Origin: Candidatus Omnitrophota bacterium
Lineage (GTDB): Bacteria > Omnitrophota > Gorgyraeia > Zapsychrales > Fredricksoniimonadaceae
NCBI GenBank assembly: GCA_903908245.1
Contig: CAIVRE010000014.1
Span: 31,963-95,962, forward strand
Direction: 5' to 3'
DNA: 64,000 nucleotides
Shown here: piece by piece, positions 26,534-58,291 of the stretch
Numbering within the stretch: position 1 is the first letter of the stretch
Layout: every line of letters starts with the position of its first letter
Translations under genes and position numbers: made by a program
Notes under the pieces: model-generated
Database searches by the model: none
The model's input: the letters and a program-made list of their open reading frames with translations, nothing else
What the model was told of the DNA's origin: nothing

Positions 26534-26734
26534 TTAGAGCTTAACAACGTTCTTAGCCTGTTCGCCCTTCGGACCTGTGGTGATCTCAAACTCGACCGCC
26601 TGGCCTTCGCTCAAAGATTTGTAGCCCTCACCCACGATCGCACTGTGATGCACGAAAACGTCCTTTCCGGACTCGGGGGTAATAAAGCCAAAACCTTTCT
26701 TGTCATCAAACCACTTAACTTTGCCACTTGCCAT
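26534..26734 (-). CDS. cspA: Cold-shock protein CspA family (start trimmed to MASGKVKWF)
   Basis: RNP1 KGFGFI and RNP2 VFVHH motifs; 66 aa; RBS aaaggagg. Confidence 0.9.
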
Positions 26735-30598: not shown

Positions 30599-33586
30599 TT
30601 ATACCGACGGAGGCGCCGAACTCCCGGCATCGCTGAATAACGGCATATTCGCCGCCGGCTGAATGTTAAGGATGACCGGCACCAGGCCGTCGATCCTGAT
30701 ATTATCCAGGTTCTGCTGGCTGACCGGCAAAGGAACGCCCGCGCCATCGCGCTTGATCTTCAAATTCATGTCCGCCGTGTTGAGGTCGATACCACCGACC
30801 GGCTGCTTATCCTGCGAACGATCCACCGCTTCCAATATTCTTTCCGCCTGCGCCTCCCTCATTTCCCGGGTTTTCTCACGGCCACCCTGAACACCTTCCA
30901 GCAACCGCTGATGAGCTTCACGAAAAGCCTCTCTTGAGCGCTCTTTCTGCTCTTGCGAAGCTGCGCGGAACGCCTTCGCTTTTTCCATTAGATCCTGCAA
31001 TTGCTCGCGCATTTTAGTGCGCAATTCTTGCCCCATAGACATGAAATCTGCCAGGTCTTCAATTGACCTGATCTTTGCCTCAGTGACCATATCGATCGCT
31101 GACTGAGGTACGCCTTCAAAAGACAATGCTTTTCCATCATCAGAAACAGTGAATTTCCCGCTGCCGGGTTTCTCAAAATTGACCGGATTCTGTACATCCG
31201 TCGGGGCATACCCTTCTGCTTTCAAGATCGTAATGATCTCAGGCAGCTTGCCATCTTTGACGGCATACTTTCCACGGGCATCCTTGCCTCCGACCGACGA
31301 AGACGTCCCGTCGCCAAGCAAGGCATTCCCCATCAGAGGCTTGAATTCCATTCTGGAGTTGATAACGAATCCTGCGGAAATACCCGCCTGCGGACTGGCC
31401 TGACGGCCTTCCAGTTTAGTCTGACCTATCACCGCCGTATTCACAGGCTGGTCGTTCGCGCCGGGTTGCGTTATCCCCGATCCCTCCGGCGTATATTTCA
31501 AGGCCGCGATCTCCTCCGATTGGGCCTCCGTAACCGTCATTGCAACCTCTTTCTCCCCGACAGGCTTGGCATTATCGATCCCCATCCCCTGCAAACGGGA
31601 CATCAACGTCGGGATCAAATTCGGGCTTCCGACCGTCACGATCAAATTCACGACAGGCTGCCCGTCCTTCTGCGCGCTAATGCCGCGGCTCGCAACGATC
31701 AACAGCTTCTCGTTGGCTTTCAGATCCACCGCGATCTCTTTTAACGGAGAACGATAGATGATCGCCGCGTGTGTTAAAGCCCCCTTCCGCGGGCTGATGT
31801 CCCGTAGAAACCCGTTCGGGACATTTTTGATCGTCACCAGGCCATCAGAACCCACGGAAACTTTCGTATCTCCCGGCATATCGCTGACCGAATACTCCCC
31901 GGGAGCCGCAAAACGGCCCGGCAGCGTAACACCCAATCCTTCGATCAAATGATTGACCGCAGACCCCGGGCGATTCATCTCCTCCTGCGAAACCCCGCTC
32001 AATACCGCCTCGTTCTTCCCGTCATACGTGATCGTGAACTGGCCTGCCCCGGTCCCCGCTTGCGCCGTAAACGCCGGCACCGTAACAGCCGTAAGGTCGG
32101 TGATCCGGTTCCAATCCGCTTCCGGAGCCGTCGCGACCCGGATCTTCCCTGCTTCGAACGTTGCAGCAATATTGCTATTCCTTAAAGCCGCCATCACCGT
32201 TGACACCCATGCCGGCGCCACGCTTAAAGACCCGTTGACCACAACACTTTTCCCTCCATCGCCCCGGCTGATAACCCCGCTGCTCTCGGATATCAGCGCA
32301 ACATGTCCTGCCGGTATTTGCCTTTCCACTACCGGAGAATGATAGATCGTCGCTGCGTTAGGATAAGCACCAGGATTATCACTGGCCTTGGCATTAAAAG
32401 GATTGAGCAAAACCGCGACCAGCACAAGAAGGCTTCCGAAAGACAGGCCCTTGGATCGGCCCTCCGGTATAACCCGCTGTAACGACGCCTTGGCCGTTTC
32501 AAGATCAACCCGCGTCACCTGCCCCTTGTCAAATGTCTGCGCCGCATTCTCAAAACCGCCCGAGAAATACTTTCGGGGAATGATCTCCTGGGAATAAAAA
32601 TCCTTATCCTCCTTGATCATGTTGAACACGCCTTTTTGAAACGCCGCGACATATTGCTTGTAGATCTCCTGATTCTGAGCTGGGTCCTGGTCAATACCCC
32701 TGACCTTGGACCGGTCGCCATAGACCTTGTTCAGGATCGATTCCTTAAGAGCGCGCTTGTACCACGCGGCCAAAAGCGCGCCGCTGTACACCTGGCGGAC
32801 CGGCGCGAAATTCTGGCCTTCATTCACTTCCTTCTCAATGGCCGGAATAATGACATCGCGCATGACCTGCTGGGATATCTTCAACGCCTCGTTCTCATCG
32901 GGCGTAGCTTCATCGACCATGGTCTGCTTGCTGGCAAGATAATCTTTCTCCATCATGACCTTAAGATGCATGTCGATCACATAGACCGTACTGTCCTTCT
33001 CGTAGATCGTCGCGCTGTCAGGCAGGACCCACACCTTGTTAATAACATCGGTAGGAATATCGGTCGTCCCGAATTTCTGATAAGCCTGCTCATAAACACC
33101 ATCCCAGAATTTCTTTCCAAGGCCGGTATCAGGATTGGTCAGGGTCGCGGAGATCTGCTTCAAGAGATAATCCTGGGCCAAAAGGTCGCGGCCCATTTCT
33201 GTCATGCCGAAATTGTCAGGAATGATCCGGTTCTGTTCATACGGCGAAAGGTTGACCCACTGGTCCGTGTCGGGGATAGCCAAAGACGCCAGAAAATATT
33301 TGATCAATTTCTGATATTCATCCTGCTGCCCGGCATCCACGACCGGATTATCCCCGCGGGAAATAATAAAATCGAATTTAAACGGATCATTGGGATGAAT
33401 GACCATGCCCTTGAGCTGGGCCGGCATGAATGCGGCGCTTAACGGCGCCTGGACACCGGGCTGCGGCATGAGACCGACCGCGGTCAGCGACTGCGCAAAG
33501 CCTTGCGGAGGCATGATGCAACTCAACACAAAGCTCGTTAAAACAAAGAATGATGTTATTTTTCGCATGACCGGCTCCCTTTTCAA
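30599..33586 (-). CDS. Large (about 990 aa) secreted protein of unknown function with C-terminal coiled coil
   Basis: Signal peptide (MRKITSFFVLTSFVLSCIMPPQGFA); charged helical segment (residues ~850-930); no catalytic motifs. Confidence 0.5.
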   Translation of the reverse strand: MKREPVMRKITSFFVLTSFVLSCIMPPQGFAQSLTAVGLMPQPGVQAPLSAAFMPAQLKGMVIHPNDPFKFDFIISRGDNPVVDAGQQDEYQKLIKYFLASLAIPDTDQWVNLSPYEQNRIIPDNFGMTEMGRDLLAQDYLLKQISATLTNPDTGLGKKFWDGVYEQAYQKFGTTDIPTDVINKVWVLPDSATIYEKDSTVYVIDMHLKVMMEKDYLASKQTMVDEATPDENEALKISQQVMRDVIIPAIEKEVNEGQNFAPVRQVYSGALLAAWYKRALKESILNKVYGDRSKVRGIDQDPAQNQEIYKQYVAAFQKGVFNMIKEDKDFYSQEIIPRKYFSGGFENAAQTFDKGQVTRVDLETAKASLQRVIPEGRSKGLSFGSLLVLVAVLLNPFNAKASDNPGAYPNAATIYHSPVVERQIPAGHVALISESSGVISRGDGGKSVVVNGSLSVAPAWVSTVMAALRNSNIAATFEAGKIRVATAPEADWNRITDLTAVTVPAFTAQAGTGAGQFTITYDGKNEAVLSGVSQEEMNRPGSAVNHLIEGLGVTLPGRFAAPGEYSVSDMPGDTKVSVGSDGLVTIKNVPNGFLRDISPRKGALTHAAIIYRSPLKEIAVDLKANEKLLIVASRGISAQKDGQPVVNLIVTVGSPNLIPTLMSRLQGMGIDNAKPVGEKEVAMTVTEAQSEEIAALKYTPEGSGITQPGANDQPVNTAVIGQTKLEGRQASPQAGISAGFVINSRMEFKPLMGNALLGDGTSSSVGGKDARGKYAVKDGKLPEIITILKAEGYAPTDVQNPVNFEKPGSGKFTVSDDGKALSFEGVPQSAIDMVTEAKIRSIEDLADFMSMGQELRTKMREQLQDLMEKAKAFRAASQEQKERSREAFREAHQRLLEGVQGGREKTREMREAQAERILEAVDRSQDKQPVGGIDLNTADMNLKIKRDGAGVPLPVSQQNLDNIRIDGLVPVILNIQPAANMPLFSDAGSSAPPSV

Positions 33587-33715: not shown

Positions 33716-34060
33716 TTAATCAAGCGCTAAACTGATCCGGACCGCGATGTCTACCTTGGCCATCAAGGCAGGCGAAAGCGCGCCAAGCCGTTGGTCCAAA
33801 CGGCTTTTATCGATCGTCCGGATCTGGGACAAGAGGACCGTAGAGCCCTGTTTAAGGCCTGCGGCCCCGCAAGGGACCTGAACATTGGTAGGATACAACT
33901 TGGTAAAAACCTTCGTGGTCAAAGGCGCTATGATCGTTGTCAGCGAATATTCATTGCCCACATCGTTCTGAAGGACAAGGACCGGGCGATGACCGCGCTG
34001 TTCACTGCCACGGACCGGATCAAGATCGGCGCAATAGATCTCCCCCCTTTTAATCGGCAC
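33716..34060 (-). CDS. MazF/PemK-family type II toxin endoribonuclease (probable GTG start)
   Basis: N-terminal motif PIKRGEIYCADLDPVRGSEQRGHRPVLVLQ typical of PemK/MazF; overlaps the antitoxin stop. Confidence 0.75.
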   Translation of the reverse strand: MPIKRGEIYCADLDPVRGSEQRGHRPVLVLQNDVGNEYSLTTIIAPLTTKVFTKLYPTNVQVPCGAAGLKQGSTVLLSQIRTIDKSRLDQRLGALSPALMAKVDIAVRISLALD

Positions 34061-34295
34061 GCAACAATGCCTCCCGGTCAGAGAACTCAAAATCTTTCGC
34101 GAGGTCCATCGCCTCGCCGGACATCTCCGCGTACCCTTCCTTCAAGAGGGCTTCACGGACACACCGCTCTTTTTCATCAATATAAAAATCCACCGCACGC
34201 TGAATAAGGGTACTGCGACCGGCCTTTTCACGACGGGATTCCGCATCCAGGCGGGCTTTCATCTCTTCAGGGATCGTAATATTAATATGCACCAT
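34050..34295 (-). CDS. Ribbon-helix-helix (CopG-like) antitoxin, 81 aa
   Basis: RHH N-terminus MVHINITIPEEMKARLD, acidic C-terminus; RBS aaggag; directly upstream of the toxin. Confidence 0.65.
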   Translation of the reverse strand: MVHINITIPEEMKARLDAESRREKAGRSTLIQRAVDFYIDEKERCVREALLKEGYAEMSGEAMDLAKDFEFSDREALLRAD

Positions 34296-45684: not shown

Positions 45685-47367
45685 TCAAATATCCGGCCCC
45701 CCGTCAAACACAGTCAAAGTGAACTCAAGCGGGACAAGCCCCATACTGGACTGTTCCTGGCGGCTTGGGCCAATGCTCAGCCGGGCCGCATCAAATCCGG
45801 CGGCCAAAATAAGATCATTCACGGCTTTGGCACGCGCAGCCGCCAAAGACTGCAGGGCCGGCTTATCCGCAACGCCATTACCGATCAACTGCCGCTTGAT
45901 CTCCTCTACGATCTTATCATCGTTATAAGCGCCTTCTTTGATCTTATATTTTTTCGTGATCTCCCATAGTTCACGGATACCGACCCTGCGCTGATATAAC
46001 ATCTGGTATATCCAGCTCTCGGAGCGCGTTGATGTCCGACGCAACTCGGCATAATCCTTTGCCAGCGTTTCCGTCTTGATCGCCTTCCAATCGAGATCGG
46101 GGTCATAACCGCCGTTGACCTCAAGCCTGAGCTTCGGATGCTCCTTAAGCCCCTGCAGCAGCGTATGGATCTTGACCTTCTCGGCGTCAGAAATATCAGC
46201 CTTGCCTGGCACGAACCGGACATACCCCAATTCATCCGTCCCGCTATCCACGCCGATCGCCGACCCCAGAAAAGCGAACGGCTTGGTAACAAGCCCTGTA
46301 AAGAAATTCGTCACGACCTGTCCGATCAGCGGCCAGTAATGAAAATCAGGCTTGCTCATATCACCCGTCACAGGAAGCGATATTTTAATGCGTCCCTGCG
46401 GGTCTTCCAGCAACGCCACCACCAGGCCGAACGGCAGCGGCAAAGCATCCTTGCTTTCCACCTTCTGACCAAAAGCAAAGCGCTGGACCAGGATCTTATG
46501 CGCGGCTGTCAACTTGTTCCCGCTGATACGATAATCCGTCTTGAACTCCAATACGCCACCCTTAAGCGCCCGTCCGGTATATTTCCCGACATAAGGGGTC
46601 AATACGTCCAACGCAAAACCATTAAAGGAAAAACTTGCTTCAAGCTCGACAGGCTGGACGAATGGCTTGATGTTCACTTCAGAATTGATGATCCCTTTAC
46701 TCCCCAGCTTTGCCTGAAAAACAACCCTGGCCAACCCATCCCGCCGGGTGGAAAGGCCCGTAACCCGCACATCGATGTCGCTTAAAGCAACGGAAAAGTT
46801 GGGATGAATCGTACGGTCGAGAAAATTCACGCGGCTATTCTTGAGCGTGATAACGTCAACCACGACCAAAGGCAAAGAAGGCATAGGCACCGCCACGGCC
46901 AGTCCCTGCAGCTTGGACGGATTTTTCTGAAGAGCGATCGCCGCCGCAGGCGCCGACTTCTCCCCCGATGGAACAAGATCCATCAGGTTCACATGCCCGC
47001 CGTCTGACAGGACCATATTGACCTTCAGTCCGTCCACCGACAATGATTCCACGCGATATGCTTGCTTGAACAGCGCAATAAAACTGACATCCACCCCCAG
47101 CCGGTCAAAACCCGCCATGACCTGCCCGTCCGTATCAAGCACCGCAAGTCCACGCACATCCAGCTGCCATAAAAAAGGATTGAACATCACCGAAGCGACC
47201 CTGACAGGATGCCCGAGGATCCTGGTCCCCTGGCTTTCAACGCCGAATTTTAACGCCAACGGTAAAACAACAGCAGCCGCAAAAAGATAAAAAACATAAC
47301 AACCAGCCGCGATCTTCAGAAACCAAGGAACAATCCTTTTCAACATATCAACCCCTGCCTCAAACAC
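45685..47367 (-). CDS. Membrane-anchored DUF748/AsmA-like protein
   Basis: N-terminal TM anchor followed by long beta-rich body; resembles DUF748. Confidence 0.35.
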   Translation of the reverse strand: MFEAGVDMLKRIVPWFLKIAAGCYVFYLFAAAVVLPLALKFGVESQGTRILGHPVRVASVMFNPFLWQLDVRGLAVLDTDGQVMAGFDRLGVDVSFIALFKQAYRVESLSVDGLKVNMVLSDGGHVNLMDLVPSGEKSAPAAAIALQKNPSKLQGLAVAVPMPSLPLVVVDVITLKNSRVNFLDRTIHPNFSVALSDIDVRVTGLSTRRDGLARVVFQAKLGSKGIINSEVNIKPFVQPVELEASFSFNGFALDVLTPYVGKYTGRALKGGVLEFKTDYRISGNKLTAAHKILVQRFAFGQKVESKDALPLPFGLVVALLEDPQGRIKISLPVTGDMSKPDFHYWPLIGQVVTNFFTGLVTKPFAFLGSAIGVDSGTDELGYVRFVPGKADISDAEKVKIHTLLQGLKEHPKLRLEVNGGYDPDLDWKAIKTETLAKDYAELRRTSTRSESWIYQMLYQRRVGIRELWEITKKYKIKEGAYNDDKIVEEIKRQLIGNGVADKPALQSLAAARAKAVNDLILAAGFDAARLSIGPSRQEQSSMGLVPLEFTLTVFDGGPDI

Positions 47368-47477
47368 TGCGCTCTTATCTACCTAAATCGCGCCCCTTTA
47401 CGGCCAGCAACACCGGTATTTTCAAGAATACTAATATTAACACGCCCGCGAGCTTGAACACAAGTCCGAAAGTTTTC

Positions 47478-47505
47478 TTGAAATACAAAGTATTAAAGAT
47501 AAAAT
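47478..47505 (+). promoter_or_regulatory. Sigma70-like promoter (TTGAAA-16-TAAAAT) in front of the 19-codon ORF
   Basis: Hexamers at 47478-47483 and 47500-47505. Confidence 0.35.
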
Positions 47506-47562
47506 AATTTATTGCAACCGTTGGAGAACGACCGTTCAACATTCATAAACGCAGGAGGAACA

Positions 47563-47622
47563 ATGGGCGACAAGAATCCGAAGAACAAGATCAAGAAGGG
47601 CAAGACAGCGAAAAAGAAGTAA
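47563..47622 (+). CDS. 19-aa lysine-rich small protein MGDKNPKNKIKKGKTAKKK
   Basis: AGGAGG 6 nt upstream of the ATG, own promoter, terminator hairpin 30 nt downstream. Confidence 0.4.
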   Translation: MGDKNPKNKIKKGKTAKKK

Positions 47623-47653
47623 TCAGCAAAAACCGCGATCCATCGCGCAAAGA

Positions 47654-47686
47654 AAAAGCCGGACGTTTAAAACCGTCCGGCTTTTT
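47654..47686. terminator. Bidirectional rho-independent terminator
   Basis: aaaaagccggacg-tttaaaa-ccgtccggcttttt: 11-bp GC-rich stem flanked by A-run and T-run. Confidence 0.55.
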
Positions 47687-47713
47687 ACATTACACCCTAT
47701 AAAAAACTGCGGC

Positions 47714-48190
47714 TTATTTCGCGGCCGATAGCGGCACAACAGCCTTGGCCTGAACCTCGGCCCTCGTTTTCTCCTGGATCCCCTTCCACTGCTTCCACTG
47801 CTCGGCCGACAACACCGCCTCGACCTTGCGGGAAACCTCGAGGTCGCGGCAGGTGTTATCCACCTGGATATCCGCGATCTTCTGCAGCTGAGCGCGGATC
47901 TTCTTGATTTCTTCCCGTTCGGAAACCATCTTGTTAAGGTCCTGACGCAAGATCGTGATCTGCTGGGTCTTGGCCAGCAACGCGTCCTTCAGGCCGCCTG
48001 TAAGCGTTTTAATATCCGTGACCTGTTTATCCGTCAGCCCCAATTCCTTCTGGAAAGAAAAGATCGTCTTTCCCTCGGCCGGCTGCGCCACAGGCGCGGC
48101 CGCGGCCGGGACCACAGGCTCGACTGCCAGCGCATAACCAGCCATGGAAAGACCCAAAACCGTCATTACCGCGATCAATAACCTTTTCAT
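47714..48190 (-). CDS. Periplasmic LTXXQ-motif (Spy/CpxP-like) helical protein
   Basis: Signal peptide; LTDKQ and repeated helical K/Q-rich segments. Confidence 0.5.
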   Translation of the reverse strand: MKRLLIAVMTVLGLSMAGYALAVEPVVPAAAAPVAQPAEGKTIFSFQKELGLTDKQVTDIKTLTGGLKDALLAKTQQITILRQDLNKMVSEREEIKKIRAQLQKIADIQVDNTCRDLEVSRKVEAVLSAEQWKQWKGIQEKTRAEVQAKAVVPLSAAK

Positions 48191-48365: not shown

Positions 48366-50153
48366 TTATGGGGCACATCTGTCATTAACACAATGATTGC
48401 TGTCACATTCCCAATCATTCTGATAACAAAGAGATCCGATGGAACGATCGGTGCAGGTCGCGTACGATGTTTCACAAAAGATCTGGCACTGGTCCTGCGC
48501 GCCGCAATGTTCGCCAAGAGCCCCGTTGGTGCAAGCCCGCTGCCACCCCGAATCATACCCGCAGAACCCCGTCTCGCAAGAACTGTTGTCCGTACACGGA
48601 TCGCCGAAAACCGCTTTCGTCGCGGAGCATTTAAAACCGACACAATAACTTCCGGAACAGTCCGCGCCTGAATCACACCCAGACCCGACACTGCCATCCC
48701 CGCAGCTGGAATGGATACACTGCCCCGACTGACAACTGGAATTGTCCGTGCATGCCGCGCCGGCCGCGCCGGGAGAAGCCTGGCATATCCCGTCAACACA
48801 AAAACCGGATACACAAAAAAGCCCGGAAGAACAGAAATCCCCGTCCGCAATGCTGTGTGTAGCCACGCACGCCCCCGTTGCGGTGTCGCACGACTCTTCC
48901 GCAGTACAACAATTCACCGGCTCGGCATACGCCCAGCCGATGTTCTGTGTGCAGGCGGTAGTGCCATTGGGACAACAATATCCCGGAGCCCAGAACCAGC
49001 CCAGATTGTTGTTATTATTCGCGCAAAAGGTCCCCGCGCCGCAACATGTCATTGGCTGCGAATAACCGCAACATTCATCCCCGTTATTGCAGCAGGTCGC
49101 ATCATGCCCTCCGCCGCTGCTGCACACGAACTGGCCGCTGTTACAGCACTGGACCCTTCCCACGACGGATACGCCGCAACTGTTATCCAGCGGGCAGCAA
49201 TTCCCGACATTGGCAAAATTCTTGCAGCAATACTCCCCGCCGGAACATGTTGCTCCGGCACAATCGGCATCTGCCACAGCAGAACAATAATCCCCGCCGA
49301 CTCTCGGGACATACAATTCCCCTGCAGCGCACGACCCTTGAGTATATCCCGTAAAAACACAACTGCTGGCCGTGCAGGATTGTCCCGCGCCACACGTCGA
49401 CCAGCAACCACCGCAATTGTAGGGGTCCGTGGCAAAATCCGCGCAACTGCCCCAGCAACACCCGGGGTTCTCTCCGCCGCACACATTCCCCGGGCTGCCG
49501 CAATTATTGATATCCCAATTAGTATCGATACAACCGCCGCCACTGCAATAAGAACACCAGTTGCCGCAGCCACCGCAATTGTTGGGATCAGAAGCAAGGT
49601 CCGTACAGCCGCCCCAACAGCACCCGGGGTTCTCCCCGCCGCACACATTCCCGATGCCACCGCAATTATTGACATCCCAGTCTATGTCGACACAACCGCC
49701 ACCGCTGCAATAAGAACACCCGTTGCCGCAACCGCCGCAATTATTAGGATCCGTCGCAAGGTCTGTACAGCTGCCCCAGCAGCACGCGGGATTCTCTCCA
49801 CCGCACACATTCCCGCAACTGCCGCAATTATTAATATCCGAATCCGGATAGACACACGCCCCGGAACAATCGGTCTCGGCTGGAGTGCACCCGCAGACCC
49901 CTCCGACACAAGGCCGCCCGTCGCCGCAAACAGTCCCGCAACCGCCGCAATTATTGGCGTCAGATGTAATATCGGCACAACTGCTGCCGCAACAAATGGT
50001 CCCGCCCGTACAGGTGCCGCAAACCGGGTTCACCCCGTCCTTGAACGGACTGTTCGTGGCCAAAGGGACAGTCGTTATGGCAAAAGCCTGGTTATGCGCC
50101 ACAACCAGAAAAAGCCCCAGGACGATCAAAGAGAACAGCCGGATCATTTTCAT
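48366..50153 (-). CDS. Secreted cysteine-rich protein with about 7 Stig1-type repeats followed by further Cys-rich modules (paralog A)
   Basis: Signal peptide MKMIRLFSLIVLGLFLVVAHNQAFA; repeats CCWG(S/G)CTDLA(T/S)DPNNCGGCGN-C; over 100 Cys in 595 aa. Confidence 0.7.
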   Translation of the reverse strand: MKMIRLFSLIVLGLFLVVAHNQAFAITTVPLATNSPFKDGVNPVCGTCTGGTICCGSSCADITSDANNCGGCGTVCGDGRPCVGGVCGCTPAETDCSGACVYPDSDINNCGSCGNVCGGENPACCWGSCTDLATDPNNCGGCGNGCSYCSGGGCVDIDWDVNNCGGIGNVCGGENPGCCWGGCTDLASDPNNCGGCGNWCSYCSGGGCIDTNWDINNCGSPGNVCGGENPGCCWGSCADFATDPYNCGGCWSTCGAGQSCTASSCVFTGYTQGSCAAGELYVPRVGGDYCSAVADADCAGATCSGGEYCCKNFANVGNCCPLDNSCGVSVVGRVQCCNSGQFVCSSGGGHDATCCNNGDECCGYSQPMTCCGAGTFCANNNNNLGWFWAPGYCCPNGTTACTQNIGWAYAEPVNCCTAEESCDTATGACVATHSIADGDFCSSGLFCVSGFCVDGICQASPGAAGAACTDNSSCQSGQCIHSSCGDGSVGSGCDSGADCSGSYCVGFKCSATKAVFGDPCTDNSSCETGFCGYDSGWQRACTNGALGEHCGAQDQCQIFCETSYATCTDRSIGSLCYQNDWECDSNHCVNDRCAP

Positions 50154-50165
50154 ATCACCTCTGCC

Positions 50166-50585
50166 TTAAAAAGAAATATCCCCGGCATCCGAGATCGCGG
50201 CTGGCTGGCTTTGCCCGGGAAGACCGGCGGAAAAAACCACATAATACCTTCTGTTGCTTGAAACAAGATACTTGTACTCGCTGGTCGCTGTCGCGCCGAA
50301 AGGATCGTACAAAGGCGCTTTGATCAGTTGCGGGGTCGCAGGGATCAGGGCAGACGCACAGATGGTATCCGTCCCCGCAGGAAAAGACCTTTGGTGAATA
50401 TAATACGCCTCCAGCGCAGCCTGCAAGGCTTTGACCTCACTCTGGGCCCGGGTGACCCTGCCCTGGTCCTGCATGCCCTTGATACGAGGCACAGCGATCC
50501 CGATCAAGATCCCCAGCACGGCAAGAACAACAAGGAGTTCCAGAAGGGTAAAACCTTTAGGCCTGCTGACCGGCTCTGACGCCAT
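50166..50585 (-). CDS. GspG/PulG-like major pseudopilin (paralog of 57836-58291)
   Basis: Prepilin N-terminus KGFTLLELLVVLAVLGILIGIAVP plus GspG-type motif RIKGMQDQ. Confidence 0.8.
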   Translation of the reverse strand: MASEPVSRPKGFTLLELLVVLAVLGILIGIAVPRIKGMQDQGRVTRAQSEVKALQAALEAYYIHQRSFPAGTDTICASALIPATPQLIKAPLYDPFGATATSEYKYLVSSNRRYYVVFSAGLPGQSQPAAISDAGDISF

Positions 50586-50599
50586 AAAACACCCCCCTC

Positions 50600-50926
50600 T
50601 TATTTCACCTGGGCCGGTGTCTGCATCGCGGCCTTATGCGCTAGGGCACGCTCTTTCGCCAACTTCATCTGCTCTTCGATCCTGGCCGCAACTTCCGGAT
50701 TAGCCTTGAGAAAAGCATCCCGTTCGGCATTCAACTGTTCGTTGAGCGCCTTGCGCGCCTCGGCCTGTTTTTTCATCAAGGCAGACCATTCCGCCTGCCC
50801 GGCAAATTGATCCGGCCGAACAATTGCCTGCGCGGCAGCGGGCTCCGTCGATGCAGCCGGCTGGGCAAAAGACATTGCAGGAAGAACCATTAACGCCGCG
50901 ACCACTCCCAGGAATACTTTCTTCAT
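50600..50926 (-). CDS. Small secreted helical protein (Spy-like?)
   Basis: Signal peptide; Ala/Lys/Glu-rich helical 108-aa protein. Confidence 0.4.
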   Translation of the reverse strand: MKKVFLGVVAALMVLPAMSFAQPAASTEPAAAQAIVRPDQFAGQAEWSALMKKQAEARKALNEQLNAERDAFLKANPEVAARIEEQMKLAKERALAHKAAMQTPAQVK

Positions 50927-51146
50927 AACCTTCTCCTTTGTTATTTATAATGATAACCAAACCCGGTCCCTGCCTGGCCCCCCGTTCGGGGAGGACAGTC
51001 GATCATCAGCTGCACGTCCCCGTTGCGGTATTGCACGACTGTCCGGCCGTACAACAATTGATCGGCTCACCGTACGCCCAGCCAAGGTTCTTCGCGCAAG
51101 CCGTCGTGCCATTGGGGCAACAATATCCCGGAGCCCAGTACCAGCC

Positions 51147-52889
51147 CTAGCTGTTGTGATTATTCGCGCAGAATGTCCCTGCTCCGCAACATGTCATCGG
51201 ATTGGAATAACCGCAGCATTCATCCCCGATATTACATACTGTCGCGTCATGGCCCCCTCCGCTTACACAGGCAAATTGGCTGCTGCTGACACAGGCGACC
51301 CTTCCGACAACGGACGAACTGCATGTTTGGTCCATATCGCAACAAACCTGGTCCCCGCTGCCACCCCACCCGTTCACTGCCGCGTAATTCTTGCACGAAT
51401 ATTGCGTAGCCGAACAACCGCTATCCCCGGCTTGCGTACAATAACTGCCGCCGCCCTGATTTGCGATCTCCATTTGCCCCGCAGGGCACTGGCAGACGCT
51501 ATCAATGCAAGTCTTGCTGCCTGTGCACACATTCCCGCACCAGCCGCAATTGTTATTATCAGCGCTCATATCCTCTAGACAACTGCCACCGGAACAGCAG
51601 CCTAAAGGACATACATTCCCGAGACTGCCGCAATTGTTGGGATCCGAATTTAAATCCACACAACTGCTCCCGATACAACTCGAAGGACACCAATTGCCGC
51701 AACCGCCGCAGTTGTTCGTATCCGTTGCAAGGTCACTGCACCCGCCCCAACAGCACGAAGGGTTTTCTCCGCTGCACACGTTCCCGACACTGCCGCAATT
51801 GTTGACATCCCAATCCAGGTCATAACAGCCGCTACCGACACAATAAGGACACCAGTTCCCGCAGCCGCCGCAATTATTCGTATCCGTCGCAAGGTCCGTA
51901 CAACCACCCCAGCAACACGCGGGATTATCCCCATAACACACATTACCGGGGCTGCCGCAATTATTGACATCCCAGTTCATATCCGGCGTACAAACACCCG
52001 CAGTACAATAAGGAAGGTCCCAAGGGCACACATTGCCACAGCTGCCGCAATTATTTGTATCCGCATTGGTATCCACACAAAACCCGGAACAGATCGTCAG
52101 CCCGCCCGGGCAGCTGGTGCCGCAACTCCCCGTTGAAGTATCGCAAGCCTCCTCGGACGTACAGCAATTGACCGGCTCCATATATGCCCACCCGCCCCAA
52201 TACGCGCAAGTCGTCGTGCCGGTAGGGCAGCAATATCCCGGGGCATAAAGCCAGCCGAAAGGATTATTATTATTCGCGCAAAACGTTCCCGGGCCGCAGC
52301 AGGTCAGCGGATTGGAATAACCGCAGCATTCTTCCCCGTTATTGCACACGGTCGCGTCATGCCCCCCCCCGCTTATACAAGCGAATTGATTATTGCTGAC
52401 ACATCCAACCCTTCCAACAACAGAAGCACTGCAGGTTTGATCGGTCTCGCAACATGTCTGGTCAGTGCTCCCGCCCCACCCATGAATAGCATAATAATTC
52501 TTGCACGCATATTGCGTCGATGAACAACCCGTATCACCCGGTTGCGCACAATAACTGCCGCCGCCCTGGTTCCAGATCTGCATCTGCCCCGCGGCACAGG
52601 TCCCCTGGTTATAAGGAAGAACAACCGTACACGCTCCGCTGGAACAGGCTTTTCCAACACCGCAAACAGTCCCGCAACCACCGCAATTATTGACATCGGA
52701 AGAAATATTGACGCAACTGCTGCCGCAACAAACAGTACCGCCCGAACAGACCCCGCAAGCCGGATTTATCCCGCTCTGATACGGGCTATTGGTTGCCAGA
52801 GGAACAGGCTTTATGGCCAGGGCCGTGTTGCCTGCCGCAACCAAAGAAAACCCGAGGACAATTAGAAGAAACAGCCTGATCGTTTTCAT
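51147..52889 (-). CDS. Secreted cysteine-rich Stig1-repeat protein (paralog B, modules in a different order)
   Basis: N-terminal 90 aa about 75% identical to paralog A; Stig1-type repeats in the C-terminal half; a CCGxGTFCANN module occurs twice. Confidence 0.7.
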   Translation of the reverse strand: MKTIRLFLLIVLGFSLVAAGNTALAIKPVPLATNSPYQSGINPACGVCSGGTVCCGSSCVNISSDVNNCGGCGTVCGVGKACSSGACTVVLPYNQGTCAAGQMQIWNQGGGSYCAQPGDTGCSSTQYACKNYYAIHGWGGSTDQTCCETDQTCSASVVGRVGCVSNNQFACISGGGHDATVCNNGEECCGYSNPLTCCGPGTFCANNNNPFGWLYAPGYCCPTGTTTCAYWGGWAYMEPVNCCTSEEACDTSTGSCGTSCPGGLTICSGFCVDTNADTNNCGSCGNVCPWDLPYCTAGVCTPDMNWDVNNCGSPGNVCYGDNPACCWGGCTDLATDTNNCGGCGNWCPYCVGSGCYDLDWDVNNCGSVGNVCSGENPSCCWGGCSDLATDTNNCGGCGNWCPSSCIGSSCVDLNSDPNNCGSLGNVCPLGCCSGGSCLEDMSADNNNCGWCGNVCTGSKTCIDSVCQCPAGQMEIANQGGGSYCTQAGDSGCSATQYSCKNYAAVNGWGGSGDQVCCDMDQTCSSSVVGRVACVSSSQFACVSGGGHDATVCNIGDECCGYSNPMTCCGAGTFCANNHNS

Positions 52890-57835: not shown

Positions 57836-58291
57836 TCAGATACAGCCGGCAACAGTTCCGTTCGTAACACAAATGCCGCCGTTAAGATTACCCGTGACCG
57901 CGGCACCGCCATCAGTAAGCGCGCTGATCGTTGGCGCAGTACCAGGCCCGACGGATATAATGATATAATAAAGCCCGTCCGTAGACTTAAGATACTTGTA
58001 CTCGGTCCCGGTGGCGGCGAACGGATCATAGAGCGGAGCAGCCACGATCTTGGGATTCAAGGCATTGAGCGTGCTGGCACAGATCGTATTACTGCTCGCC
58101 GGATAAGCATTGCTGTTGTTGATATAATACGACACGATCGCGGTCTGAAGCGTCTTGAGCTCGGACTTGGCTTTCTGGATATTGGCCTGGTCCTGCATGC
58201 CTTTGATACGCGGAACAGCGATGCCGATCAGGATCGCGAGGACCGCGAGCACAACGAGAATTTCGAGGATCGTAAAACCTTTTTTATTCAT
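57836..58291 (-). CDS. GspG/PulG-like major pseudopilin
   Basis: KKGFTILEILVVLAVLAILIGIAVPRIKGMQDQ; about 65% identical to the 50166-50585 product over the N-terminal half. Confidence 0.8.
   Translation of the reverse strand: MNKKGFTILEILVVLAVLAILIGIAVPRIKGMQDQANIQKAKSELKTLQTAIVSYYINNSNAYPASSNTICASTLNALNPKIVAAPLYDPFAATGTEYKYLKSTDGLYYIIISVGPGTAPTISALTDGGAAVTGNLNGGICVTNGTVAGCI

Follow-up and report, generated by a model that had tools for sequence, protein, structure and literature searches.

The question raised by this locus is whether a short intergenic gap contains a complete, independently expressed gene for a peptide of only 19 residues and, if so, what that peptide might do. The gap separates two minus-strand genes in the window analysed here, a 64-kb stretch of DNA from Candidatus Omnitrophota bacterium, and measures exactly 346 bp (47368-47713), as against the approximately 350 bp given in a preliminary description of the locus. 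The candidate micro-gene lies on the plus strand, where its signals span 47478-47689 (47478-47686 as first described), and since 41 of the 47 long ORFs that served as gene proxies in the 64-kb window are on the minus strand, it is among the few plus-strand units of the window. Its neighbours are considered as context only. The divergent neighbour (45685-47367, minus strand) encodes a DUF748/AsmA-like protein (Pfam PF05359, E 6e-109) which starts at either a GTG at 47367 or an ATG at 47346, gene callers taking the ATG start and thus a 553-aa product; the promoter of this gene must also sit within the gap. The convergent neighbour (47714-48190, minus strand) encodes a periplasmic protein of 158 aa that resembles Spy/CpxP (NCBIfam Spy E 1e-7, below the cutoff); one homologue carries the JGI name Spy/CpxP family, and a consensus scan assigns this gene a promoter-like site of its own (48309->48282). 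The composition of the gap is A-rich and G-poor, with local intergenic DNA containing 35% A and 17% G.

Two further features of the window are recorded here as observations in their own right. Genes for two proteins of about 590 aa, both Cys-rich and carrying repeated modules of the Stig1-like type, are interspersed with genes of type II secretion/pseudopilins (N_methyl, T2SSG); the coordinates concerned are 48366-50153, 51147-52889, 50166-50585 and 57836-58291, all on the minus strand, and the pairing of Stig1-like protein and pseudopilin looked unusual. Overlapping small genes at 33716-34060 and 34050-34295, again on the minus strand, encode products with the N-termini VPIKRGEIYCADLDPVRGSEQ... 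and MVHINITIPEEMKARLD..., of which the former looks like a MazF/PemK-type toxin and the latter like a ribbon-helix-helix antitoxin.

The expression signals proposed for the micro-gene can be located individually. The claimed promoter is present as a near-consensus, sigma-70-type site on the plus strand, with a -35 element TTGAAA (47478-47483), a 16-nt spacer and a -10 element TAAAAT (47500-47505) that together match 10 of 12 consensus positions, and in a consensus scan this site (47478-47505) is the sole promoter-like sequence of the gap. From its position we infer that transcription would start near 47511-47514, giving a predicted 5' leader of about 50 nt (47511-47562, plus strand) that holds the Shine-Dalgarno sequence AGGAGG (47553-47558). 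The strong Shine-Dalgarno sequence first described is thus where it was said to be, although the spacing between it and the ATG is 4 nt (AACA), not 6. Both it and the start codon are unpaired in the centroid fold of the window transcript, and RNA folds leave the Shine-Dalgarno sequence and ORF unstructured in the window as well as in L014, the contig that carries the homologue described below.

The same region contains a 13-nt inverted repeat (47420-47432 and 47471-47483, overall 47420-47483) whose arms are 92% complementary and separated by 38 nt, and which places AGTWTTCTTGAAA on both strands, pointing apart. Read from the sequence, these copies may be the paired -35 regions of divergent promoters, although the significance of the arrangement is uncertain. 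No sigma-70-like minus-strand promoter for the DUF748 gene occurs in the gap at 9/12 or better. The minus-strand copy of the repeat is followed by N16-CGTAAA upstream of the DUF748/AsmA-like gene and resembles an ECF-sigma-type promoter; on our own reading of the sequence, TGAAAA-N16-CGTAAA is a possible promoter for that gene. Elsewhere in the window, a promoter-like site TTCATA-18-TATAAT (10/12) at 50922-50951 on the plus strand has no plus-strand gene downstream and overlaps the start region of a gene on the opposite strand (50600-50926, minus strand); either the match is spurious or it marks another orphan transcript.

The 19-codon, Lys-rich ORF is likewise present as claimed, on the plus strand, from an ATG at 47563 to a TAA stop that ends at 47622 (47563-47622), and encodes MGDKNPKNKIKKGKTAKKK. 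The product contains nine Lys, one Asp and no Arg, for a net charge of about +8, and its only non-polar residues are M1, I10 and A16; it has no Cys, no Ser, a single Thr and no signal peptide. Judging from the sequence, an unbroken helix is disfavoured by Gly2, Pro6 and Gly13, and the peptide cannot fold alone. As the initial Met precedes Gly, it is probably removed to yield a mature 18-mer, GDKNPKNKIKKGKTAKKK, with a charge of about +8, which we infer to be soluble, cytoplasmic and polycationic. The 19-codon ORF itself was uncalled by gene callers in contigs carrying the window sequence, and a 36-aa form extended to an upstream TTG is absent from a collection of 15 billion proteins.

How readily such signals might coincide can be gauged from the window itself. 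AGGAGG occurs 28 times on its two strands, and is followed after 3-10 nt by an ATG that opens an ORF of at least 15 codons in seven instances (both strands), comprising four true gene starts, two sites inside genes, and the micro-ORF; among the small ORFs preceded by a Shine-Dalgarno sequence in the gaps of the window, the micro-ORF alone has a full AGGAGG with an ATG. Promoter matches of at least 10/12 number 10 in 64 kb, and eight of these are intergenic, most of them correctly placed upstream of genes, in a window of which only about 12% is intergenic DNA. That consensus scans work in this organism is confirmed by a positive control, a CspA-like cold-shock gene (26534-26734, minus strand) with AGGAGG, an 11/12 promoter (26886->26859) and a leader of about 125 nt.

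The codons of the ORF provide a further test. Scored against a codon adaptation index (CAI) reference set of 54 window genes, the micro-ORF reaches 0.889, whereas the window genes average 0.738 and none exceeds 0.82; compared with 18-codon windows drawn from real genes, it ranks within the top 6%. When codons for the same peptide were drawn from local intergenic composition, none of 20,000 draws attained this value (P < 5e-5), and under uniform composition the corresponding probability is 0.002; among 942 ATG-initiated ORFs of 19 codons or more that are not genes, only 0.4% match its codon score. GC content by codon position (5/18, 5/18 and 15/18, with a genomic GC3 of 0.67) is concentrated at third positions, and eight of the nine Lys codons are AAG, despite A-rich and G-poor surroundings which would predict AAA. 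Further, the repeats of CAAGA within the ORF are spaced by 15, 6 and 9 nt, all multiples of three, and are therefore in codon register. Both codon usage and three-base periodicity are consequently those of a protein-coding gene.

At the 3' end, the preliminary description was right that a hairpin is present, but its stem, given as 11 bp, GC-rich and followed by a U-tract, comprises 13 bp, and the micro-ORF does not have this strong hairpin to itself. The structure (47653-47689) is symmetric, of the form A5-stem-T5, with an 8-bp GCCGGACG core flanked by five A-U pairs. Its folding energy is -21.2 kcal/mol on the plus strand and -22.1 on the minus strand (z = -7.1 and -6.5), and no shuffled sequence folds equally well. 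It sits 26 nt past the stop codon of the convergent Spy-like gene, homologues of which in other contigs also have a hairpin and T-run directly 3'. This proximity, together with the symmetry of the AAAAA-stem-TTTTT arrangement, points to a terminator used in common, and the hairpin is best read as a putative bidirectional intrinsic terminator shared by the micro-gene on the plus strand and the Spy-like gene on the minus strand. A smaller hairpin between it and the ORF, CGCGAT(GG)ATCGCG followed by GTTTTTG on the minus strand (47634-47647; -6.5 kcal/mol), folds no better than shuffles on that strand, is not U-tailed on the plus strand and is terminator-like on the minus strand only, where it is possibly a second, weak terminator of the Spy-like gene. 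No Rfam family was matched at gathering score anywhere in the 64-kb window; the hairpin region has sub-threshold matches only, to the terminator parts of sRNA models.

The evidence that most directly concerns selection is provided by a homologue, which was recovered using a query of three concatenated copies of MGDKNPKNKIKKGKTAKKK. The match, P0129, is a 34-aa called product consisting of MRKSGWLMITKQEAL followed by MGDKNPKNKIKKGKTAKKK, and is encoded on a 3.1-kb JGI contig, L014 (Ga0207193_1080521, from JGI 3300020048). The relevant part of this product, an ORF at 1034-1093, specifies a peptide identical to that of the window at 19 of 19 residues, although the two ORFs differ at five nucleotides, all at third codon positions. 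Four of these differences are synonymous changes (from window to L014, CCG>CCA, AAG>AAA, GCG>GCC and AAA>AAG), the fifth converts the stop codon TAA to TAG, and none is non-synonymous. A Nei-Gojobori-style count gives four changes in 9.7 synonymous sites (dS about 0.6) and none in 44.3 non-synonymous sites (dN 0), and the probability that four random differences would all be silent is about 0.001. The similarity is bounded precisely by the ATG and the stop; the 60-nt flanks are 33% and 23% identical, as expected of random sequence, and the in-frame upstream extension added by the gene caller is unrelated between the two contigs. The codon-level comparison (dN/dS) that had been recommended at the outset is thereby supplied, and the intact ORF in L014 is the reverse of the loss in relatives that would have counted against a gene. 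Changes that are exclusively silent, preservation of both frame and stop, and similarity confined to the ORF constitute the pattern of purifying selection, here observed in one homologue.

The setting of this second copy is different. L014 has a GC content of 48%, compared with 55% for the window, and its genes differ from those of the window, with an uncharacterised protein upstream of the micro-ORF and a CheW-REC protein and chemoreceptor downstream; the co-oriented CheW-REC gene lies 260 nt past the micro-ORF, in a context absent from the window. The local signals nonetheless recur, in that AGGAGG stands 5 nt before the ATG and a different intrinsic terminator (a 10-bp stem with T7) lies 28 nt after the stop. 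A clear sigma-70 promoter was not found upstream of the L014 micro-ORF; about 55 nt upstream, where no sigma-70-like promoter was found, there is a perfect 12-bp palindrome, ATGCCCGGGCAT (967-978), which could be an operator or a remnant. The C-terminus of the upstream protein in L014 (3-737) resembles that of a 995-aa protein of the window (30599-33586, minus strand), with 32% identity over 65 aa (E 1e-5), and this hints, if weakly, at an Omnitrophota-like source for L014 as well. Judged on these two sequences, it appears that a Shine-Dalgarno sequence, ORF and terminator have been kept by selection while their surroundings changed, which is the signature of a protein-coding unit. Recent transfer between lineages could inflate the apparent conservation between the window and L014, but it would not explain the silent-only pattern of change.

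Other searches returned nothing comparable, and apart from same-species contigs P0129 on L014 is the only homologue found. The same-species contigs, recovered from other samples (L004-L006), match the window without a single difference across 5-6.5 kb; as they contain no population variation, they are uninformative with respect to selection. The closest relatives are further MAGs of Candidatus Omnitrophota with about 70% amino-acid identity, in which synteny is broken around both neighbours, so that the conserved synteny sought at the outset was not found in them, and no analogous ORF occurs at syntenic positions or in about 85 kb of DNA from these relatives. The DUF748 neighbour is represented by two loci in the genome collection (71% and 58% identity), which have different upstream genes and no gap, and contigs encoding closer homologues of the protein (up to 72% identity; L011-L013) also lack the arrangement. 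For the Spy-like neighbour, a metagenome scan returned one relative at 29% identity, while the homologues P0002-P0004 adjoin other downstream genes, across gaps that contain a terminator only. Neither tblastn of the peptide nor a scan for K-rich, Shine-Dalgarno-preceded small ORFs detected a paralogue or analogue in the window or at any locus examined. Likewise, there were no matches to the 36-aa extended ORF among 1.84 billion representatives, to a degenerate pattern in viral contigs, or to the peptide as a string in the literature. Searches of Pfam-A and NCBIfam (hmmscan, E up to 10) found no family for the peptide or its 36-aa extension and a phmmer search of PDB chains found no match to the peptide, in each case with the low sensitivity inherent to a 19-mer.

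Taken together, we are highly confident, on sequence grounds, that the MGDKNPKNKIKKGKTAKKK ORF is a real, translated gene under selection, and both its gene-like codon usage and the silent-only homologue support the proposal of a small protein with expression of its own. A sceptical alternative, that an A-rich gap containing the promoter and terminator of neighbouring genes merely happens to hold AGGAGG, an ATG and 19 codons, would be aided by the tendency of such composition to favour AAR codons, by a terminator to which the convergent gene has at least an equal claim, and by the two evidently fortuitous combinations of AGGAGG, ATG and ORF inside window genes. It is nonetheless scarcely credible, as local composition predicts AAA rather than AAG and fails the codon test at P < 5e-5, and an identical peptide with silent-only changes in an unrelated context brings this reading close to refutation. 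To revive it, L014 would have to be a chimera or contaminant derived from the organism of the window itself, and the five nucleotide differences speak against that. If instead the functional product were the transcript, a regulatory or dual-function sRNA of about 180 nt acting in trans or as an antisense directed at the DUF748 5' region or promoter, then the ORF would be secondary or incidental. The sRNA-like size of the transcript, with its own promoter and strong terminator, suits this idea, as do the location of the DUF748 promoter, which has to lie in this gap as well, and an inverted repeat that joins both promoter regions. We consider it quite unlikely, because four silent differences, a kept stop and similarity that ends exactly at the ORF reflect constraint on protein and not on RNA, and the ORF region is unstructured in folds and no Rfam family reaches threshold. 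As the copy in L014 has different neighbours, what has been conserved cannot be cis-antisense action. Identity with a known non-coding RNA was rejected separately, the covariance models giving no match at gathering score and only sub-threshold matches to terminators.

Two further alternatives accept translation of the ORF but assign the peptide another role. Attenuator leader peptides, such as those of the his, thr, leu, phe and trp operons of enterobacteria, share with the micro-ORF a length of 14-30 codons, enrichment in one residue, a Shine-Dalgarno sequence and a terminator hairpin, and a lysine-sensing leader or regulatory uORF whose translation controls termination could be imagined here given that nine of 19 codons specify Lys, that hairpins lie within 32 nt of the ORF as in amino-acid attenuators, and that a co-oriented CheW-REC gene follows in L014. 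A leader peptide had indeed been offered as an alternative in the preliminary description. With no co-oriented gene downstream in the window, where the next gene (47714-48190) is convergent and no plus-strand gene follows, such a role does not fit; the Lys-codon cluster of an attenuator is present, but it draws on the preferred AAG instead of rare codons, and it is accompanied by neither a co-oriented gene downstream in the window nor an antiterminator/terminator pair, the MFE and centroid folds of window and L014 transcripts forming the terminator alone, with one small independent hairpin added in the window, and leaving the ORF unpaired without any antiterminator pairing. The hairpin, for its part, is accounted for as the terminator of the Spy-like gene, and residue-for-residue conservation of a peptide across loci with unrelated downstream genes is atypical for leaders, so that we judge this role highly improbable. 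We hold it to be similarly improbable that the product is a membrane-active or antimicrobial cationic peptide, a toxin, or the precursor of a modified or secreted peptide, the first of which had also been suggested. Short cationic peptides are often membrane-active, and the window neighbours are envelope-related, including the Spy-like chaperone, the DUF748/AsmA-like protein and the secretion pseudopilins. Yet with only M1, I10 and A16 non-polar the peptide lacks a hydrophobic face, and it lacks a signal peptide; the absence of Cys and Ser and presence of a single Thr disfavour a modified precursor; and no modification, export or immunity genes are common to both contexts, the envelope-related setting itself being absent in L014. 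A type I toxin or similar membrane-active peptide was also rejected as a class, as there is no hydrophobic or amphipathic segment that would insert in a membrane.

As to a possible partner of the peptide, small basic proteins of the ribosome offer a close precedent. bTHX (about 26 aa, in Thermus, Bacteroidota and chloroplasts), bS22 (about 30-33 aa, in mycobacteria, Bacteroidota and Borrelia), bL37 (about 24 aa, in mycobacteria) and eL41 (25 aa, in eukaryotes) are all similarly tiny and extremely basic. They were found by structure, are routinely missed by gene callers, are highly conserved and sit in rRNA pockets, and the high-expression signals of the micro-gene would fit a ribosomal component of this kind. 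A study of the Borrelia ribosome described an unannotated bS22 with 61% Lys+Arg, and anticipated more such proteins in other bacteria (doi 10.1101/2023.04.16.537070). The resemblance is not one of sequence, however, as MGDKNPKNKIKKGKTAKKK is shorter (19 aa), contains no Arg and matches none of these proteins in Pfam, NCBIfam or PDB chains. Known tiny ribosomal proteins are Arg-rich, and bS22, bL37 and eL41 are helical, whereas a helix is unlikely in MGDKNPKNKIKKGKTAKKK due to its Gly, Pro and Asn residues. Identity with bTHX (30S Thx) was rejected for want of a Pfam-A/NCBIfam profile or PDB match, at the low sensitivity that a 19-mer allows, and a bS22/bL37/eL41-type sequence on account of the missing family match, the zero Arg content, and Gly2, Pro6 and Gly13, which oppose a helix. 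To our knowledge, at 18-19 residues the peptide is shorter than any bacterial ribosomal protein.

A second group of comparators binds DNA. Lys-rich, histone-H1-like DNA binders of bacteria include Hc1 and Hc2 of chlamydiae and the C-terminal tails of mycobacterial HupB, which, like the peptide, are rich in Lys, Ala, Thr, Pro and Gly and poor in Arg (e.g., KKGKTAKKK), and which bind electrostatically; the likeness is one of composition. They differ in being much longer proteins, or repeats appended to folded domains, whereas MGDKNPKNKIKKGKTAKKK is a free 19-mer. As a composition with Lys as its only basic residue, and with Gly, Pro and Asn, is closer to H1-like tails than to Arg-rich, helical ribosomal micro-proteins, DNA is the main alternative to RNA as a partner. 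More broadly, the micro-gene resembles other bacterial small proteins (up to 50 aa) encoded by stand-alone small ORFs, in having its own expression signals and in being invisible to standard annotation, but most characterised members are 25-50 aa long and hydrophobic or membrane-bound, whereas MGDKNPKNKIKKGKTAKKK is a hydrophilic polycation of 19 aa.

The explanation that we favour for the locus as a whole, with somewhat better than even confidence, is that of a monocistronic micro-gene for a probably highly expressed polycationic peptide that likely binds a polyanion. Transcription from the sigma-70-type promoter would yield a single-gene RNA of about 180 nt, in which an unstructured leader of about 50 nt with a consensus Shine-Dalgarno sequence would promote efficient translation of the 19-codon ORF, and which would end at the hairpin common to the convergent Spy-like gene. 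A near-consensus promoter, full Shine-Dalgarno sequence, optimal codons and strong terminator together suggest that the micro-gene is highly expressed. The lysines of the peptide would then bind a polyanionic partner, most likely rRNA or the ribosome, given that every residue is conserved, that its signals suggest high expression and that tiny basic ribosomal proteins provide a precedent; DNA is the alternative. That the peptide binds nucleic acid or the ribosome, as the preliminary description had also entertained, is put forward tentatively from its composition, at somewhat less than even confidence. The more specific proposal of an unrecognised, lineage-specific ribosomal or ribosome-bound micro-protein of Omnitrophota, lodged in a pocket or channel of rRNA, would explain both the residue-for-residue conservation and the high-expression signals, but we regard it as unlikely.

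As far as its two sequences indicate, the micro-gene appears to define a new family of small proteins with no detectable relatives among known families. Stand-alone small ORFs that encode basic peptides are already known, and this member is distinguished by being unusually short, hydrophilic, and reliant on Lys alone for its basic charge. Genes of such length fall below the cut-offs of gene callers and are consequently absent from protein databases; the present example was recovered from raw sequence signals, and then backed by the pattern of silent substitution in a second metagenome contig. As an 18-19-mer, the peptide is concrete and synthesisable, and so directly assayable. If it should prove to be confined to a few close lineages, then it would be one more orphan small protein. 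Almost everything known of the candidate phylum Omnitrophota comes from metagenome-assembled genomes, and should the peptide prove abundant and associate with the ribosome or nucleoid, it would be among the shortest stand-alone conserved bacterial proteins known to us, and would represent a new component of the core machinery in these bacteria.
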